Positions 16,499 through 24,245 of a DNA stretch of 64,000 nt are shown here, one piece after another. The notes under the pieces are model-generated. The model saw only the letters and a program-made list of their open reading frames with translations. It did no database searches and was not told the origin of the DNA. Position 1 is the first letter of the stretch, and each line of letters starts with the position of its first letter. This DNA is from a virus (taxonomy: Duplodnaviria > Caudoviricetes): the IMG/VR virus record IMGVR_UViG_3300021399_000009, positions 32,001 through 96,000 of that record; one strand, 5' to 3'. Made by a program: the position numbers and the translations under genes.

Positions 16499-18352
16499 AT
16501 GTACGCAGAAAAATACGAAAAGTATCGTAATAAGATTGATTTTATAAACAGTTATAGAAAAGCAAAGAACGCAGCAACAGGTTCTAAGTATGATAGCAAC
16601 GCAAACGTAGAACATAAAAATATTTGTACTTGTGCAGGAGAGCTTGTAAAAGGAGATAAGATAGGTGTTAACCGTCTGCTTATGATAAATAAGATAACAG
16701 AAATGTGGGGCAAAGAACTTGCAGATGAATATATCAGACAGCTTGAATCTCACGAAATTTACAAACACGATGAAACAAATATATCACCGTACTGCGTTGC
16801 TATAACAATGTACCCTTTTCTTCTTAATGGTTTAAGAGAGCTTGGTGGTGTTTCAAAAGCTCCTAAACATATTGAATCCTTTTGCGGTGAGTTTATTAAT
16901 CTTGTTTATGCCATAGCCGCTCAATTTGCTGGTGCGGTGGCTACTCCCGAAGTTCTTCTTTACATGGACTATTTTATAAGAAAAGATTACGGAGATGATT
17001 ACATAAATCATCTTGACGAATATGTTACCCCACCTTTTGCGAAAAATCCTAAGACACTTAAACAGTTAATTGAAGGATATTTCCAGCAGATAGTTCATAG
17101 TATTAATCAGCCAGCAGCAGCAAGAGATTACCAGTCTTGTTTCTGGAATGTTTCTTATTTTGATAAGCCTTATTTTGAAGGTATGTTTGGAGAGTTCCTT
17201 TTTCCTGATGAAACAGAACCTATATGGGAAACATTTAACTGGTTACAGAAACACTTTATGATTTGGGTTAATACCGAAAGATTACACTATGACCTTTCTT
17301 TCCCTGTCGAAACAGTTAATCTTCTTAATGATGGTAAAGAAGATTTTGTTGACGAAGATTGGGGCGATTTTCAAGCAGAAATGTACTCGAAGGGTGCTTG
17401 GTTCTTCACATATTCAAGCAATACAGTTGATAGTCTCAGCTCGTGTTGTCGCCTGAGAAATGAGGTAAGTGAAAACACATTTAGTTTTACCCTTGGTGCA
17501 GGAGGTGTGTCAACAGGTTCTAAGGGAGTAATGACTATTAACATAAATAGGCTCGTGCAAAACGCTGTACGTGATGGCAAGGACATCTCCGAAGCTGTCA
17601 GAGAACAGGTTAAAAAAGTTCATAAATACCTTGCAGCTTATAATGAAATAGTGTGGGACAACTTCAAGGCAAATATGCTTACTGTTTACAAGGCTGGATT
17701 TATTGACCTCGACAAGCAGTACCTCACTATTGGAATCAATGGATTTGTTGAAGGTGCGGAGTTTCTTGGTATTGAAATTTCACCCAATGATGCTTATTTT
17801 GAATACGGTGAAAAGGTATTAAAGCCTATTTACGAAGAAAATAAAAAAGCAAAAACGGAACACTTAATGTTTAACACAGAGTTCGTTCCTGCTGAGAATC
17901 TGGGAGTAAAGAACGCCAAATGGGACAAGGAAGATGGATATGTAGTTCCAAGAGATTGTTACAATTCTTACTTCTATATTGTTGAAGATGAAACAACAGA
18001 TATACTTTCTAAGTTTGAACTTCACGGTAAGAAGCTCACTAAGTATCTCGATGGTGGTAGTGCGTTACATAATAACCTTGCAGAACATCTCACAAAGGAA
18101 CAGTACGCAATACTTAATAAAAAGGCTATCAAGGAAGGCTGCTCATACTATACACACAATGTAAAAAATACAGTATGTAATAAGTGCGATTATCGTTCTA
18201 AGCATACACTTGATATTTGTCCTCGTTGCGGAAGTCGTGACCTTGATTACATAACAAGAATTATAGGTTATACAAAAAGGACATCTTCTTTTGCAGAACC
18301 AAGACAAAAAGAAGAAGGCAGAAGATTTTATGGGAAGTATGCAAAGGCTTAA
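16499..18352 (+). CDS. nrdD: Class III (anaerobic) ribonucleotide reductase, no ATP cone
   Basis: IYKHD, PYC, SCCRL, EFVPAE, CNKC/CPRC zinc site, glycyl-radical RIIGY. Confidence 0.95.
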   Translation: MYAEKYEKYRNKIDFINSYRKAKNAATGSKYDSNANVEHKNICTCAGELVKGDKIGVNRLLMINKITEMWGKELADEYIRQLESHEIYKHDETNISPYCVAITMYPFLLNGLRELGGVSKAPKHIESFCGEFINLVYAIAAQFAGAVATPEVLLYMDYFIRKDYGDDYINHLDEYVTPPFAKNPKTLKQLIEGYFQQIVHSINQPAAARDYQSCFWNVSYFDKPYFEGMFGEFLFPDETEPIWETFNWLQKHFMIWVNTERLHYDLSFPVETVNLLNDGKEDFVDEDWGDFQAEMYSKGAWFFTYSSNTVDSLSSCCRLRNEVSENTFSFTLGAGGVSTGSKGVMTININRLVQNAVRDGKDISEAVREQVKKVHKYLAAYNEIVWDNFKANMLTVYKAGFIDLDKQYLTIGINGFVEGAEFLGIEISPNDAYFEYGEKVLKPIYEENKKAKTEHLMFNTEFVPAENLGVKNAKWDKEDGYVVPRDCYNSYFYIVEDETTDILSKFELHGKKLTKYLDGGSALHNNLAEHLTKEQYAILNKKAIKEGCSYYTHNVKNTVCNKCDYRSKHTLDICPRCGSRDLDYITRIIGYTKRTSSFAEPRQKEEGRRFYGKYAKA

Positions 18353-18827
18353 ATATCTTGGTCGCTCCATAGTTTTTCAAGAAGTACCAAATGAAATAAG
18401 TCTTGCTATAAACGTTAGTGGTTGCCCTTACAAATGTAAGGGTTGCCACAGCTCTTATTTGTGGGATTACAAGGGTAGATACGTCAGTGATGATATTAAA
18501 GCATTAATAGATATGCACGATGGCATTACTTGTGTTTGTTTTATGGGTGGCGACCAAAACCCACAAGAGCTTAATAAGCTAATAGATTATATCCATTCAA
18601 GGGGACTAAAAGTTTGTTTATATACTGGAACAGACAACATTCCAAAAGATATATTTCATTTGGATTATCTTAAAATAGGTCATTACTCAGAAGAGCTTGG
18701 AGGGCTTGACAAACCAACAACAAATCAAAAATTTTATGTTGTACATGATGACAAAGAATACTTTGATATGACTATTATGTTTAGAAAGGAAATGCAAAAT
18801 GTCATTAAAGATAATAAAGAATCCTGA
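18339..18827 (+). CDS. nrdG: Class III RNR activase (radical SAM)
   Basis: FQEVPNE, CPYKCKGCHS, FMGG, LYTG, TTNQ. Confidence 0.93.
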   Translation: MQRLKYLGRSIVFQEVPNEISLAINVSGCPYKCKGCHSSYLWDYKGRYVSDDIKALIDMHDGITCVCFMGGDQNPQELNKLIDYIHSRGLKVCLYTGTDNIPKDIFHLDYLKIGHYSEELGGLDKPTTNQKFYVVHDDKEYFDMTIMFRKEMQNVIKDNKES

Positions 18828-18996
18828 CGAGAATATTTACAATGAAGTTACAGAAGCAGTAATGTCAAATGGGCGTTACTGTCCGTGTCGCCTCGAAAAA
18901 ACTCCTGATACTCTTTGTCCTTGTAAAGAATTTAGAGAGCAAACTGAAATAGGAGAGTGCCATTGTGGTCGCTTCTGTAAAATAGAGGAGAACTAA
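18799..18996 (+). CDS. Ferredoxin-thioredoxin reductase catalytic-subunit-like protein
   Basis: YCPCR...CPC...CHCG signature. Confidence 0.85.
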   Translation: MSLKIIKNPDENIYNEVTEAVMSNGRYCPCRLEKTPDTLCPCKEFREQTEIGECHCGRFCKIEEN

Positions 18997-18997
18997 T

Positions 18998-19246
18998 ATG
19001 TGCGAAGAGTGTAGACACAACCCTTGTGTTCCAGCTTGTCCAAATTACGAACCACCTATAGCATATGAATGTGATAATTGCGGTGGTGCTATTTACGCAG
19101 GAGACACAGTTTACGTACTCAATAATAATCATTATTGTGAATACTGCTGTTACAAGACCGAAGCAGAAATACCAGAGCCAGATGATGATGATTTGATGTA
19201 CGAACGTTGGCGTGATAGAAAGTGGGAGCAAGAACACGATGTTTGA
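18998..19246 (+). CDS. Cys-rich hypothetical protein
   Basis: CEEC..PC...CP, CDNC, CEYC; GAGGAG RBS. Confidence 0.7.
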   Translation: MCEECRHNPCVPACPNYEPPIAYECDNCGGAIYAGDTVYVLNNNHYCEYCCYKTEAEIPEPDDDDLMYERWRDRKWEQEHDV

Positions 19247-19439
19247 TGAAACAGTTTGTAGTGAATTTACAATTGATAAGAATTATTTCTTATGGTTAAC
19301 ATACACTACCGAAAGCGGCAAAGTATGGTATATCACATCTAATAAGCAACGGACTGAATATCAGCTCTGGAAGGAAAACAAGAAAACAAAATACAAAAGT
19401 GACAATCCAACTGACCTTTATAAGTATATTAAAGAATAA
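19239..19439 (+). CDS. Hypothetical phage protein
   Basis: GGAG RBS before ATG 19239. Confidence 0.6.
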   Translation: MFDETVCSEFTIDKNYFLWLTYTTESGKVWYITSNKQRTEYQLWKENKKTKYKSDNPTDLYKYIKE

Positions 19440-19453
19440 TGGAGGAATAAAAA

Positions 19454-19723
19454 ATGAATAACGAAAAGATTATGGGATTTGACCACGCACTTGCTGATAT
19501 TGACAAACAGATTGAAGGACTGTATGCAAAGAGAGCAGAAATCGAAAACAGAATGGAACAGGTAAGAAAGGAGGCAGAAGAAAAGCACAAGGCAGAACGA
19601 ACGGAGGCGTATCAGACAATCGAGGAATTGATTGATAACTACAATGAAAAGTATCACGGTAGTCTTGTGTTAATGGAGCGTTTTGATGTCAATAAATTGC
19701 TTTCTCGATACGGACTTATATGA
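19454..19723 (+). CDS. Coiled-coil hypothetical protein
   Basis: GGAGG RBS; charged heptad pattern. Confidence 0.7.
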   Translation: MNNEKIMGFDHALADIDKQIEGLYAKRAEIENRMEQVRKEAEEKHKAERTEAYQTIEELIDNYNEKYHGSLVLMERFDVNKLLSRYGLI

Positions 19724-19726
19724 GGT

Positions 19727-20314
19727 ATGAAAATGAAGATTGGTATAGATATAGATTGTGTTTGTGTTAATACAACAGAGTGTCTTGTTAATTATATTAA
19801 TGAACGTTTACCAGTTAATCTTAACCTCAATGATATAACTACATATTCCATCGAAGCTGCTCTCCCAGAGCAGTATCGATGGATTGTAGATGCTGGATTC
19901 AGAGATTCAAAAATGTGGAAGAAGATTGAAATGATACCATACTGTGCCGAAACAATCGAACAGTTATACAAAGATGGTTTTGAAATCTATTTTGTAACAA
20001 GTTCACTTCCTGAGAATCTAAGAAAGAAAATTAATCATCTGACAAGAAATATGCCGTTCTTTCCAAAGGACTTTGTATGGCGACATACAATCAATATACA
20101 AGACAAGAGCTTACTTGACTTAGACATCCTAATTGATGATTGCTTGGGACACCTTTTAAATGAACGTAGACATTACAAGTCTATCGCTCTTGACTATCCT
20201 TGGAATCAGCTTGATGAATCTAATGAACCAAATGATTTTTATAGATGCAAGAACTGGCGAGAGATATACTATTTAATCAAAGACATCGAAGACATCGAAA
20301 GGAACTGCTTCTAA
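19727..20314 (+). CDS. 5'(3')-deoxyribonucleotidase (HAD/NT5C family)
   Basis: IGIDID, FVTS, ILIDD, YPWN. Confidence 0.85.
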   Translation: MKMKIGIDIDCVCVNTTECLVNYINERLPVNLNLNDITTYSIEAALPEQYRWIVDAGFRDSKMWKKIEMIPYCAETIEQLYKDGFEIYFVTSSLPENLRKKINHLTRNMPFFPKDFVWRHTINIQDKSLLDLDILIDDCLGHLLNERRHYKSIALDYPWNQLDESNEPNDFYRCKNWREIYYLIKDIEDIERNCF

Positions 20315-20370
20315 AAGAGCATAACGGATATAGTTGGTGACATAATATACATATATAAGGAGAGATAATA

Positions 20371-20805
20371 ATGGAAGTTAATATTACTAAATTAAACACA
20401 AATGCAACAATTCCCACAAGAGGTAGCTCTCAGGCTGCTGGATATGACCTTTATGCTTGCATTGATGAGCCTGTTGTGATTTATCCACACTCTACCGTTA
20501 AGATTGGCACGGGTCTTGCTATTGAAATTCCCGAAGGATATTTCGGTGCTATATTTGCAAGAAGCGGACTTGCAACAAAGAAAGGTCTTAGACCATCAAA
20601 TTGCGTGGGTGTGGTGGACAGTGACTACAGAGGCGAATGTATAGTTGCACTTCACAATGATACAGATGTGTATATGTCAATTGAACCGCATGAACGAATG
20701 GCACAGCTTGTGATACAGCCTTATCTTTCGGTTGAATTTACTGAGGTTGATGAATTATCAAATACAGAACGTGGCTCTGGTGGTTTTGGTTCTTCGGGCA
20801 AGTAA
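20371..20805 (+). CDS. dut: Trimeric dUTPase
   Basis: AGYDL, RSGLA, GVVDSDYRGE, AQLV, RGSGGFGSSG. Confidence 0.97.
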   Translation: MEVNITKLNTNATIPTRGSSQAAGYDLYACIDEPVVIYPHSTVKIGTGLAIEIPEGYFGAIFARSGLATKKGLRPSNCVGVVDSDYRGECIVALHNDTDVYMSIEPHERMAQLVIQPYLSVEFTEVDELSNTERGSGGFGSSGK

Positions 20806-20831
20806 ACTAAATTCACGTTGGGAGGAAGTAT

Positions 20832-20930
20832 ATGAACGAACAAGACTGGTTGCAAGCTATAGTTTCAATACTTATACTTCGCAACGTAATCACAAAAGAA
20901 GAAGGAGAAAAAATTAAGGGGAGCAAATAA
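20832..20930 (+). CDS. 32-aa small protein, candidate recombination directionality factor
   Basis: GGGAGG RBS; MNEQDWLQAIVSILILRNVITKEEGEKIKGSK; last early gene, facing the integrase. Confidence 0.5.
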   Translation: MNEQDWLQAIVSILILRNVITKEEGEKIKGSK

Positions 20931-20944
20931 GCTCCCCTTAATTT
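20911..20944. terminator. Bidirectional terminator between the converging arms
   Basis: AAATTAAGGGGAGC-aaataa-GCTCCCCTTAATTT, 14-bp stem. Confidence 0.85.
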
Positions 20945-22668
20945 ATTATTATAGATATATTAACGTGATATGTAAATATAACATTGTTCTTTCCGAATAT
21001 TCTAATAACATTTAATTGTTGTTCTGGTATCATTTTACAGAAGATGACCCCAGAACTACGATTAAACGAGCAATGAGATTCGCCAAAATTCATTATAATA
21101 TTAAGCTCCATGTTTTTCTTATCAACTGATGTTACCTCTATACGTTCTAAAAACATACCTACAAGAATGTCAACTTCTTTTTGTGTCAACTTTCCATTGA
21201 GTATATCATTAATAGTTTTTCTTACTTGAACTAATCTTTTTTCAATGTCTTTATATGAGGATTGATTATCTACTAACGATTTACGTTTATGTTCAAGTTC
21301 ATCAAGTTCGGTACTTAAACTATCATTTCGTTTTTTAAAATCTACTTTGTTTATATCTCCGCTCATATATAAATCTAATAGCATTTCTTTCTTGTGTTCT
21401 ATATTATTCTGTTGTGCAACAATCTTGTCGATTGATTCCTTTGAGTTATTGTCGCTTAAAGCAGCTTTACATAATGACATAAATTTGTCAGTGTAATCAC
21501 TTAGATTCTTTAAGTTTGTAACAAAACATTTTGAAAGAATATCATATATTTCTGTTTCATAAATAGCAAATGTAGGACAAGTAGCCGAACCCTTGCTTCT
21601 CTTTTCTCTACATATATATTGATAGATATTTTGACCTTTGTGTAGCCTGTGACTATAACTTGTTCGCCAGAATGGGGCTTGACAATGTGTACAAAACAGT
21701 TTGCCCGAAAGAACGGAAGTCGTTTTCTGTCCTCGACCTCTACTCTTTACTTCTTCACTTCTTGCTTTAAATAAACAATTTGCCTTATTCCAAAGTTCTT
21801 CGCTTACAATGGCAGGAACAATTTCACCTGTTTCGTCTTTGTAGACTATCCAATCACTCTCAGGCAAAAACACTTGTTCCTTGGTTCGATAATCAGCTAT
21901 CTTTACCTTGTTACCACAGTAGTACCCCTTGTACTTAGGATTGTTTAAAATACCAGATATGGTATTGTGACTAATTGGAGTACCGTTTCTTGAAGTAATC
22001 CCTTTTGCGGTAAGCTGACGTTGAATTTCTCGTAAAGCATATATTCCTGTCGCATACTGTTCAAATATAAACCTTACTATTTCAGCTTCTTTTTCATTGA
22101 TAATCAATCTACCATTGAACTTATCATATCCATAGATACGACTATTACCCATAACAACGCCCTTCTGAATAGATTGCTTGTGTCCAAACTTAACTCTTTC
22201 AGATAACTTACGCACTTCATCTTGTGCAATAGAAGCCATTATGGTTAAACGAAACTCAGCATCACTATCTACTGTATTTATATTGTCGTTTTGAAAGAAT
22301 ACACCCACACCATTTCGCAACAGCTCTCTTGTATAAGTCAAGCTATCAATTGTATTTCTTGCAAAACGAGATACCTCTTTTGTAAGAATTAAATCAAATT
22401 TGCCATTCTTACCATCCTCAATCATACGCATAAAGTTCTCACGATTGGCTGCTGATTCACCACGAACTCTATCAACATATCCTTCAATATATGTCCAGTT
22501 AGGATGCTCTTTTATCATTTTATCAAAGTGCTCTATCTGATGTTCAACAGAACTATCCTGTTCTTCTTTGAGTGTTGACACTCTAACATAATAAGTAACT
22601 TTTATATCAAGGTCAAAGATTGTTTTATGGTTCTGCCTCATATAATTAACAGTACTATAAATGTCCAT
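20938..22668 (-). CDS. Large serine recombinase (integrase)
   Basis: YVRVST catalytic Ser, SRFARN, recombinase domain (YGY, LNNPKYKG, PAIVSEELW), zinc ribbon CTHC..C..C, coiled coil. Confidence 0.95.
   Translation of the reverse strand: MDIYSTVNYMRQNHKTIFDLDIKVTYYVRVSTLKEEQDSSVEHQIEHFDKMIKEHPNWTYIEGYVDRVRGESAANRENFMRMIEDGKNGKFDLILTKEVSRFARNTIDSLTYTRELLRNGVGVFFQNDNINTVDSDAEFRLTIMASIAQDEVRKLSERVKFGHKQSIQKGVVMGNSRIYGYDKFNGRLIINEKEAEIVRFIFEQYATGIYALREIQRQLTAKGITSRNGTPISHNTISGILNNPKYKGYYCGNKVKIADYRTKEQVFLPESDWIVYKDETGEIVPAIVSEELWNKANCLFKARSEEVKSRGRGQKTTSVLSGKLFCTHCQAPFWRTSYSHRLHKGQNIYQYICREKRSKGSATCPTFAIYETEIYDILSKCFVTNLKNLSDYTDKFMSLCKAALSDNNSKESIDKIVAQQNNIEHKKEMLLDLYMSGDINKVDFKKRNDSLSTELDELEHKRKSLVDNQSSYKDIEKRLVQVRKTINDILNGKLTQKEVDILVGMFLERIEVTSVDKKNMELNIIMNFGESHCSFNRSSGVIFCKMIPEQQLNVIRIFGKNNVIFTYHVNISIIIN
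21011..21066. other. Putative attP site inside the integrase 3' end
   Basis: Imperfect inverted repeat with 26-bp arms, 21/26 matching, around a central ACAG. Confidence 0.65.
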
Positions 22669-22690
22669 AACATCGCCCCCCCTTAATATA

Positions 22691-22720
22691 ATTATACCAT
22701 AGAAAATATAGATAAATCAA
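22691..22720 (-). promoter_or_regulatory. sigA-type promoter of the integrase
   Basis: Minus strand TTGATT, 18 bp, TGG-TATAAT, just upstream of a G-rich RBS. Confidence 0.7.
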
Positions 22721-22721
22721 G

Positions 22722-22768
22722 AAAAAAATAGGGGATAACAAGTTTTATTTTTACTTGTTATCCCCTAT
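22722..22768 (-). terminator. Late-operon terminator
   Basis: 16-bp stem ATAGGGGATAACAAGT/ACTTGTTATCCCCTAT followed by a T-run on the minus strand. Confidence 0.85.
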
Positions 22769-22771
22769 AAA

Positions 22772-22894
22772 TTATCCAAAAAGAAGCTCCTTAATTTTCT
22801 GCCAAATAGACTTCTGTTCTGTTTTTGGTAACGTTTTTGTACCAGATTTTTTTCTCCAATATTTTTTCTTTTTAACTGTAATCTTCTGTCCCAT
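22772..22894 (-). CDS. 40-aa highly basic peptide closing the lysis cassette
   Basis: GAGGTG RBS; MGQKITVKKKKYWRKKSGTKTLPKTEQKSIWQKIKELLFG. Confidence 0.55.
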   Translation of the reverse strand: MGQKITVKKKKYWRKKSGTKTLPKTEQKSIWQKIKELLFG

Positions 22895-23171
22895 ATACAC
22901 CCACCTCGTTTCCATATCCGACAACTGCCGTATTTATTCCATCCGAGTCTTGACTAATCTCAACCTCAGTTTCTTCTACATATTCAAATTCATTAATAAA
23001 CCTTTGAGTTTTAATAAGTAGACAAGCTGTTATCAATAAGCAGATAACTAATATAGTAAATGCAATAACAAGTCCAATTGTCATCTTGGTCATATATTTA
23101 TCAAATCTTTGTTGTGCCAAAATATAATTATCTTTCCATTTTTTATTCTCACACGCTTTGCAATCAGACAT
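22872..23171 (-). CDS. Single-TM membrane protein (lysis region)
   Basis: One long hydrophobic helix, acidic C-terminus; GAGGTG RBS. Confidence 0.7.
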   Translation of the reverse strand: MSDCKACENKKWKDNYILAQQRFDKYMTKMTIGLVIAFTILVICLLITACLLIKTQRFINEFEYVEETEVEISQDSDGINTAVVGYGNEVGVYGTEDYS

Positions 23172-23184
23172 AATTATCACCTCT

Positions 23185-23439
23185 TTACTGCTTCAAAATC
23201 AAATTCATAATAGCCATAACAATAGCTCCTCCAGCAGTACCTAAAGTTGCATATACACCCTTTATGAGCATTGACATCTGAGAAGTTAATTTAGTCAATG
23301 TTATTTTTAACTCAGCCAGTTCTGTGGCTGAATCGGCATGACGTTCATTACAATCATCTTTACGAACAAATATTTCATTAGCTATTTCTGAACGCATATA
23401 TATATCGTCAAGTTTAGCTAAATCTTCTGGACTAAGCAT
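23185..23439 (-). CDS. XhlA/holin-like protein
   Basis: Coiled coil plus C-terminal TM, located after the endolysin. Confidence 0.6.
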   Translation of the reverse strand: MLSPEDLAKLDDIYMRSEIANEIFVRKDDCNERHADSATELAELKITLTKLTSQMSMLIKGVYATLGTAGGAIVMAIMNLILKQ

Positions 23440-23447
23440 AATACCCC

Positions 23448-24245
23448 TCACTTTCTTATTAATACATTCCAATCGCCACCGCCTAAATAACCAACTCCTA
23501 AACCATTATCTTCCTGCCACTTGTATATGGCACTCATAGTTTTATTGCCAGCTATTCCGTCAGCTTCGCCAGAATTATATCCAAGCTGATTAAGTCTGTC
23601 CTGTACCCATTTAATAAGATTTCCTTTATCACCATTTTCAACCGTATACTTTCTTACGGCAGTAAGTGTCTTGTTTCCAGCGATACCATCCACGACAAGA
23701 TTCGCTCCACCATTATTTAACGTCTGTTGCAAGGACGCTATATCTGCACCAGTCTCAATGTTTGAAGGCGATACCGTATTCTCTCCTGCAAATACAGTAC
23801 CTCTCTGAAATGTTTTAATCCAATCATTCTTAGGCGTATTGCCATAAGTATATTCATTGCCAAACCAATGATTAACTACAATGCCATTAATAGTGTATTT
23901 TTCACAATCACGGGTATCAACGTGACAACTATTTGGTAACATTAAACCTATACCACCGAAGCCAAGTCTTTCAGCTACTTCTGCAATGTCCCAAGAGGTA
24001 TACCAAGAACCATCTTTCTTCTGCACTTTTATATCAGCAGCTATACCTCTACGGTGAGCATCAGTTTTACTTCCCCACGGATTGTTCTCACAACGATAAC
24101 CTGAGTTGACGAATATAGCTTTCGCATCCATAATAGTAAACATCTTTTCAAGCCTGTTTATAAGAAGTTTAGACATAGCGTGTGAATGTCCGCAACACTC
24201 ACAGTTAAATTCGCTCTGCGAAAAATGAGTTGATAAATCTCCCAT
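23448..24245 (-). CDS. Endolysin: peptidase M15 with peptidoglycan-binding domains
   Basis: HF..SEF.C.C, NSGYRC, SxxxH..G.AAD, HVD; two DGIAG.KT repeats. Confidence 0.9.
   Translation of the reverse strand: MGDLSTHFSQSEFNCECCGHSHAMSKLLINRLEKMFTIMDAKAIFVNSGYRCENNPWGSKTDAHRRGIAADIKVQKKDGSWYTSWDIAEVAERLGFGGIGLMLPNSCHVDTRDCEKYTINGIVVNHWFGNEYTYGNTPKNDWIKTFQRGTVFAGENTVSPSNIETGADIASLQQTLNNGGANLVVDGIAGNKTLTAVRKYTVENGDKGNLIKWVQDRLNQLGYNSGEADGIAGNKTMSAIYKWQEDNGLGVGYLGGGDWNVLIRK

Follow-up and report, generated by a model that had tools for sequence, protein, structure and literature searches.

The 56-bp imperfect inverted repeat embedded in codons 535-553 of a large serine integrase gene is supported, by comparison of sequences, as the attP of the phage's own integrase. 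We located it in a window of 64,000 nucleotides (by the window we mean the whole stretch of DNA that was analysed), taken from a virus record of 108,606 bp that has direct terminal repeats. The 108-kb phage is of gut origin. Junctions of relatives indicate that the integrase family recombines attP with the host's alpha/beta-type SASP gene (ssp), at the conserved codons GG.MV(K/Q)KMI close to its 3' end, and that the exchange falls on bases one and two of the K/Q codon. A site with AA or CA at its centre, read on the integrase strand, places the two genes head to tail and swaps their C-terminal tails in frame. A TT or TG centre gives a head-on insertion, in which each gene ends within a few codons of the other's antisense strand. 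In the window phage, the inner part of attP (22 bp) is inverted with respect to its closest sisters, which gives the site a TG centre and a predicted head-on insertion. Taken as a whole, this explanation (attP in the integrase, an ssp target, orientation set by polarity and head-on insertion of the window phage) is in our judgment probable. The sequences themselves show the repeat and where it lies, the junctions of the family, both orientations and the inverted core; for the window phage itself, we infer the target, the orientation and any role of the tail from its sequence and those of its relatives. The coordinates of the features are collected in Table 1.

Table 1. Features of the integrase region, with positions in the window.
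Feature	Positions	Strand	Remarks
Large serine integrase gene, 576 aa (P0001)	20938..22668	-	Stop codon included; from the ORF list and its translation
Integrase tail, codons 544-576	20941..21039	-	Separated from the rest of the gene by the predicted integration
Putative attP, 56-bp imperfect inverted repeat (26 + 4 + 26)	21011..21066		Within integrase codons 535-553
Predicted central (crossover) dinucleotide	21038..21039		CA when read on the + strand; the integrase strand has TG, within the Cys544 codon
attP inner core, inverted relative to sister phages	21025..21052 (approximate)		Between the GTTCTGG and CCAGAAC motifs
Bidirectional terminator-like hairpin (inverted repeat I2)	20908..20947		17-nt arms, 94% complementary
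32-aa ORF facing the integrase	20832..20930	+	Candidate directionality factor; ends in the loop of the shared terminator

The integrase gene and the repeat within it

The integrase has the features of a large serine recombinase: a resolvase domain (Resolvase, PF00239, residues 26-171, E 9e-28) with its nucleophilic serine, a recombinase domain (Recombinase, PF07508, 7e-20) with a zinc ribbon (Zn_ribbon_recom, PF13408, 1e-7), and an inserted coiled coil. Ser31, in the sequence YVRVST (motif YxRVST), was invariant in 47 homologues, and the AlphaFold model contains a long coiled coil and helices at residues 371-490, past the zinc ribbon. The domains are those of a serine and not of a tyrosine recombinase, and the imperfect inverted repeat of about 50 bp around a predicted 2-bp crossover is a further feature of the large serine class. 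The reading frame is intact, and its core is under strong purifying selection (dN/dS 0.04-0.06).

The gene sits between two converging arms of the phage genome. Genes for dUTPase, NT5C and NrdD lie on one flank (the early arm), and genes for an M15 endolysin, a tail collar protein and a tape measure protein lie on the other (the late arm). Since phage genes flank the integrase and the record has terminal repeats, it represents the unintegrated, free form, as a preliminary description of this DNA had concluded from the flanking phage genes. A megablast search of the region against GenBank phages returned no matches, and a search for a SASP gene in the phage's own record found none. The end of the early arm (window 16499-20805, + strand) encodes an anaerobic ribonucleotide reductase (NrdD), a 5'-nucleotidase (NT5C) and the dUTPase; such a nucleotide-metabolism block fits a large phage of strict anaerobes.

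The terminator-like hairpin is common to the integrase gene and the converging early arm, and it is kept in L105 and L106, sister phages that are 87-92% identical to the window phage. The 32-aa ORF that faces the integrase has near-identical counterparts after the dUTPase gene in both sisters. In the relatives L083 and L107, a 44-aa ORF lies between the dUTPase and integrase genes, and its C-terminal pattern resembles that of the 32-aa ORF; the two share the ending L-R-G/N-hydrophobic-acidic...K-x-K. A Pfam search with the 32-aa ORF gave no match. It is a candidate directionality factor.

Gene order was compared between window positions 20371-24245 and the relatives L083, L107, L113 and L114. 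In all of these, as well as in L105 and L106, the integrase gene has the lysis cassette on one side and, on the other, the early arm with its dUTPase end. The window, L105 and L106 carry it on the lysis strand, whereas in L083, L107, L113 and L114 it follows the dUTPase gene on the early strand. The idea that prophage orientation is tied to the phage backbone was rejected, because the orientation of the integrase gene and the polarity of the core are found in all four combinations. Two neighbouring genes were recorded in passing. L106, a 92%-identical sister, carries a reverse-transcriptase gene (RVT_1; L106:1-490) just upstream of its holin and endolysin genes, which could belong to a diversity-generating or retron-like element. 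In L083, an integrated relative, a cytosine DNA methylase gene is split by an intein (L083:1069-3252; Pfam DNA_methylase, Intein_splicing and Hint_2).

The two arms of the repeat (21011-21036 and 21041-21066) are 26 nt each, complementary at 21 of 26 positions (81%) and separated by 4 nt. Our repeat search returned the same arms, around an acag spacer inside the integrase coding sequence, that the preliminary description had picked out. Given the base composition, a repeat of this kind has a chance expectation of 0.001 at one spacer length and of 0.014 for spacers of 0-10 nt, and no other repeat of such quality was present in the 64-kb window. Its symmetry centre coincides with bases one and two of the codon for Cys544, which precedes the last residue by 32 codons. 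When the sisters L105 and L106 were compared with each other, the attP codons had accumulated no synonymous change in 12.3 sites, compared with 183.7 in 314.2 sites for the rest of the gene. We read this absence as a direct sign of constraint on the DNA itself.

Junctions of integrated relatives in the SASP gene

To the conserved SSG-x-I-x-K-M motif, the best 120 integrase homologues are alike; beyond it they diverge into classes. About 59 carry a phage-type tail of 30-60 residues, with P at +2, R at +10 and a G-K/R...Y-x-I pattern. About 53 have a SASP-type ending, in which KKMI(D/E).Y(K/E) is followed by a few more residues. The remaining class of 5 is short, with a stop within three codons past the site. 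The type of C-terminus switches exactly at attP, and the KKMI..YE ending is found on most copies in bacterial genomes. The alignment thus contains the switch at KMI to a SASP-like sequence that the preliminary description had told its readers to look for. The KKMIE.YE endings that it had named for related clostridial integrases occur on many homologues as KKMI(E/D).Y(E/K), and integrated homologues have not retained the PEQQ... tail.

A SASP-family search of five genomes with KKMI..YE-type integrase copies recovered the N-terminal part of a SASP in three of them. In these three, the N-part (49-52 Pfam positions) lies 17 to 42 kb from the integrase gene, on the same strand. The SASP N-part (Pfam positions 1-51) continues into an element tail that is a homologue of the phage-type tail, and at the opposite end of the element the integrase is fused to SASP C-terminal residues. 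In relatives, the SASP (PF00269) is split at about model position 51. Intact SASPs of related genomes have GGQMVKKMIESYENSMK-like ends, which is the exact ending of the integrated integrases. The junctions mapped in Oscillospiraceae and Ruminococcus contigs place the insertion in the alpha/beta SASP gene, where the break falls on bases one and two of the K/Q codon within GG.MV(K/Q)KMI. Together, the fusions of SASP N-part to phage tail and the matching ends of intact SASPs indicate that the family inserts in the alpha/beta SASP gene. In parallel insertion, the integrase gains the last 7-12 residues of the SASP, and the SASP gains a phage tail of about 30 residues.

Given these SASP junctions, the reading of the preliminary description holds for the family. 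The attL and attR of integrated relatives map to the centre of the attP-like site inside the integrase reading frame, and an ssp gene is the attB; the same attB is suggested for the window phage by relatives that are 70-92% identical. L112 represents the attL left by a phage with a tail only 2 residues different from the tail of L106, the sister with an integrase 92% identical to the window's. L083 is the attR of a 69% relative; its integrase ends in INSYKMQ, after which host genes follow. The bases CA and then GAAGAT are common to attB, attP, attL and attR. Intact SASPs of the Ruminococcus type end in GGRMVQKMINSYKMQ. The Gln type makes up 51 of the 120 SASP homologues, and a single SASP match was found in the one Gln-type genome checked. 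One SASP that is otherwise of the Gln type, P0155, has Leu at the crossover codon (GGRMVLKMINSYKMQ). It could be a host escape variant, as the altered central dinucleotide of its attB should keep CA-type phages from integrating.

The position of the crossover was bounded by sequence comparison and by symmetry. In their first 500 residues, the free-form integrases P0063 and P0084 equal P0117, which is integrated. Two codons ahead of the Met, the free forms specify Asn and the integrated one Lys. Conversely, the Lys of intact SASPs is replaced by Asn in 24 SASP fusion proteins. Because only the third base of the central codon changes partner, the exchange should lie within its first two bases, which are also the symmetry centre of the repeat.

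Polarity of the site and the predicted prophage

On the integrase strand, the attP centre reads TG in the window phage and CA in its sisters. The inner 22 nt match L105 and L106 at 18 positions when reverse-complemented and at 12 when compared directly. The outer 34 nt behave in the opposite manner, with 31 of 34 direct matches to L106 (27 reversed) and 29 of 34 to L105 (25 reversed). Since the inner core matches in reverse and the outer arms directly, the core has undergone an inversion over the stretch bounded by the GTTCTGG and CCAGAAC motifs. Throughout the family, the central codon specifies either K/N/Q/H (AA or CA) or L/F/C (TT or TG), and these form complementary pairs: Q goes with C, and K/N with L/F, by complementary dinucleotides. 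C stands at the centre only in the Gln-type clade, and L/F only in Lys-type clades. In a tree based on the N-terminal 500 residues of 117 integrases, the polarity of the site changes at least 13 times.

Ghosh, Kim and Hatfull (listed among the references of PMC10083194) reportedly found in 2003 that the central dinucleotide alone fixes the orientation of a serine-integrase insertion, and for this reason head-on insertion would be expected of flipped sites. Junction sequences from three lineages support the view that flipped (TT/TG) sites insert in this manner. In L016, L045 and L050, the integrases end in LTI-stop, and the N-part of a SASP on the opposite strand runs into the integrase end. 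The integrase P0020 in L107, which is 70% identical to that of the window and has a TG centre, ends at Phe, and a 68-aa SASP ORF overlaps its end by 43 nt. L113 (free, TT centre) and L114 (integrated) form a matched pair that is also head-on. Every TG- or TT-centred case with junction DNA was head-on to ssp. The orientation argument for the window phage draws on these relatives, 43-70% identical, and on the dinucleotide rule from other serine integrases.

For the window phage, the most likely target would be a Ruminococcus-type ssp ending in GGRMVQKMINSYKMQ. Its integrase would lose residues 544-576 at a stop made by the junction and would gain no SASP residues. The SASP would finish with a short tail read from the antisense strand, and the 33-codon integrase tail would remain at the distant prophage end. 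Recombination in silico with the ssp of L110 (Ruminococcus-type) yielded a 543-aa integrase ending NRSSGVIF at F543, with a stop composed of TG and the host's next base, A. The other products were a 68-aa SASP ending QKM-TPELRLNEQ and, at the other prophage end, an orphan frame with the 33-codon tail. When aligned to SspC (2Z3X), the break lies inside the conserved GGEITKRLV-type motif, which is kept up to K-M. The preliminary description had proposed that integration swaps the integrase tail for host-encoded residues. This is what the parallel relatives do, but for the present phage the TG centre predicts truncation at F543 instead.

The site might alternatively be a relic, merely inherited by a phage that became lytic or episomal after its core flipped. 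Several searches agree with this reading. No integrated copy was found of the window phage or in its 90% cluster, all 9 members of which are free-form or fragments (the cluster members of P0001 and P0002 are either free-form or a C-terminal fragment). The attP-core motif common to the free form and the predicted junction had 0 exact matches in JGI metagenome contigs and IMG/VR, and neither a junction nor any relative above 55% identity was found in 301 genomes sampled from the candidate host's family. The phage is also large and has its own nucleotide-metabolism genes. However, the integrase ORF is intact with the low dN/dS of 0.04-0.06, the flipped site is more self-complementary (42/56) than that of the sisters (36/56), and flipped sites are functional in three other lineages. 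We consider a relic unlikely. As a separate search, a 41-aa tail used as a protein query for longer proteins retrieved only integrase fragments and no SASP fusion with the phage's own tail.

We regard parallel insertion of the window phage, with SASP residues replacing the tail after KMI, as quite unlikely as well. The KMI codons do resemble SASP codons in either orientation, the site being near-palindromic, and most integrated relatives are parallel. However, such an event would require a host ssp with a TG (Cys) centre, or a crossover in the shared AA.ATGAT bases, off the symmetry centre. Cys occupied the central codon in 0 of 120 SASP homologues, the third-base switch between Asn and Lys puts the exchange in the first two bases of the codon, and the TG- and TT-centred cases with junction DNA are, without exception, head-on. 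Finally, although any 26-nt inverted repeat can fold, it is very improbable that this one is a transcript hairpin or regulatory structure (e.g., an attenuator) with no tie to recombination, given that it has no T run, that a separate terminator hairpin lies 70 nt downstream and that homologue junctions fall on its centre.

The integrase tail and comparison with known systems

The tail that head-on insertion, our preferred reading, would cut off is translated and under selection. Its codons 553-576, which lie beyond the attP arms, have a dN/dS of 0.12-0.30, versus 0.04-0.06 for the core, and among 47 free forms the conservation of P548 and R556 is at least 90%. The AlphaFold model gave the tail no confident fold: residues 539-576 have a pLDDT of 42-55, and the last confident strands span 507-536, the final one being 529-536. 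Because the tail is retained in lineages where joining a SASP is impossible, we favor a role for it in the free-form integrase.

A bolder proposal is that one gene yields two enzymes, a free form with a conserved tail and a tail-less or SASP-tailed prophage form, whose difference would help to set directionality or enzyme lifetime, and that the near-palindromic core acts as a labile polarity switch that flips by small inversions. We put this forward tentatively and think it rather doubtful. If true, one integrase family could enter the host's only SASP gene either way, with differing effects on the spore protein.

On our reading, the same bases would act as recombination site, as integrase codons and as a mirror of host SASP codons, and would tie the evolution of the phage's enzyme to a spore protein that is conserved in the host. 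If the host has a single alpha/beta SASP gene, lysogeny would change the DNA-protecting spore protein of Clostridia that are common in the gut and rumen. The orientation variants would amount to natural matched attP/attB pairs, usable for polarity studies and as orthogonal recombination tools. Our literature searches, of incomplete coverage, turned up no paper that describes a serine recombinase in an ssp gene or an attP inside a serine integrase gene.

As in Bxb1 and phiC31, the putative attP is a quasi-palindrome of about 50 bp with a 2-bp crossover, and its non-palindromic centre would decide orientation. We found no report of recurrent natural reversal of the attP centre, relative to the integrase gene, within one serine-integrase family.

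The closest parallels in biology are SPbeta in spsM (SprA integrase and SprB) and the skin elements in sigK (SpoIVCA) of Bacillus and Clostridioides (PMC4191935, PMC5499854, PMC5025042). In these systems, too, a large serine recombinase places an element inside a sporulation gene of a spore-forming Firmicute, and a small directionality factor is expected; insertion of this kind was observed for the relatives and is predicted for the present phage. The split gene of SPbeta and skin, however, is expressed in the mother cell and rebuilt there by excision. The present family, in contrast, has an attP inside the integrase ORF and two coexisting insertion orientations, and its SASP target is cut 8 codons from the end, leaving an in-frame variant. 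To our knowledge, the attP of SPbeta or skin has not been described inside the recombinase reading frame. SASP genes are forespore genes, which argues against a mother-cell excision model here.

Integration-dependent immunity of the BPs type was reportedly described by Broussard et al. in 2013. Mycobacteriophage BPs and its relatives (PMC4557955) resemble the present phage in that attP lies in the 3' part of a phage gene and the C-termini of the free and integrated products differ. They differ from it in that their gene encodes the repressor, their integrase is a tyrosine recombinase and an effect on stability and activity was shown. In the present phage, the gene that bears the putative attP is that of the integrase itself and not a repressor gene.

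The SSV-type tyrosine integrases of archaeal viruses and plasmids share with the present integrase an att site within the integrase's own gene, which integration alters. Those enzymes belong to the tyrosine recombinases and have their gene divided into two large parts, whereas the serine integrase of this bacterial phage is predicted to lose only its last 33 residues, beyond the last confident strand. According to a review, integrases that disrupt their own gene (SSV-type, "suicidal") are found only in archaea (PMC8371274); the present family would provide a counter-example from a bacterial phage.
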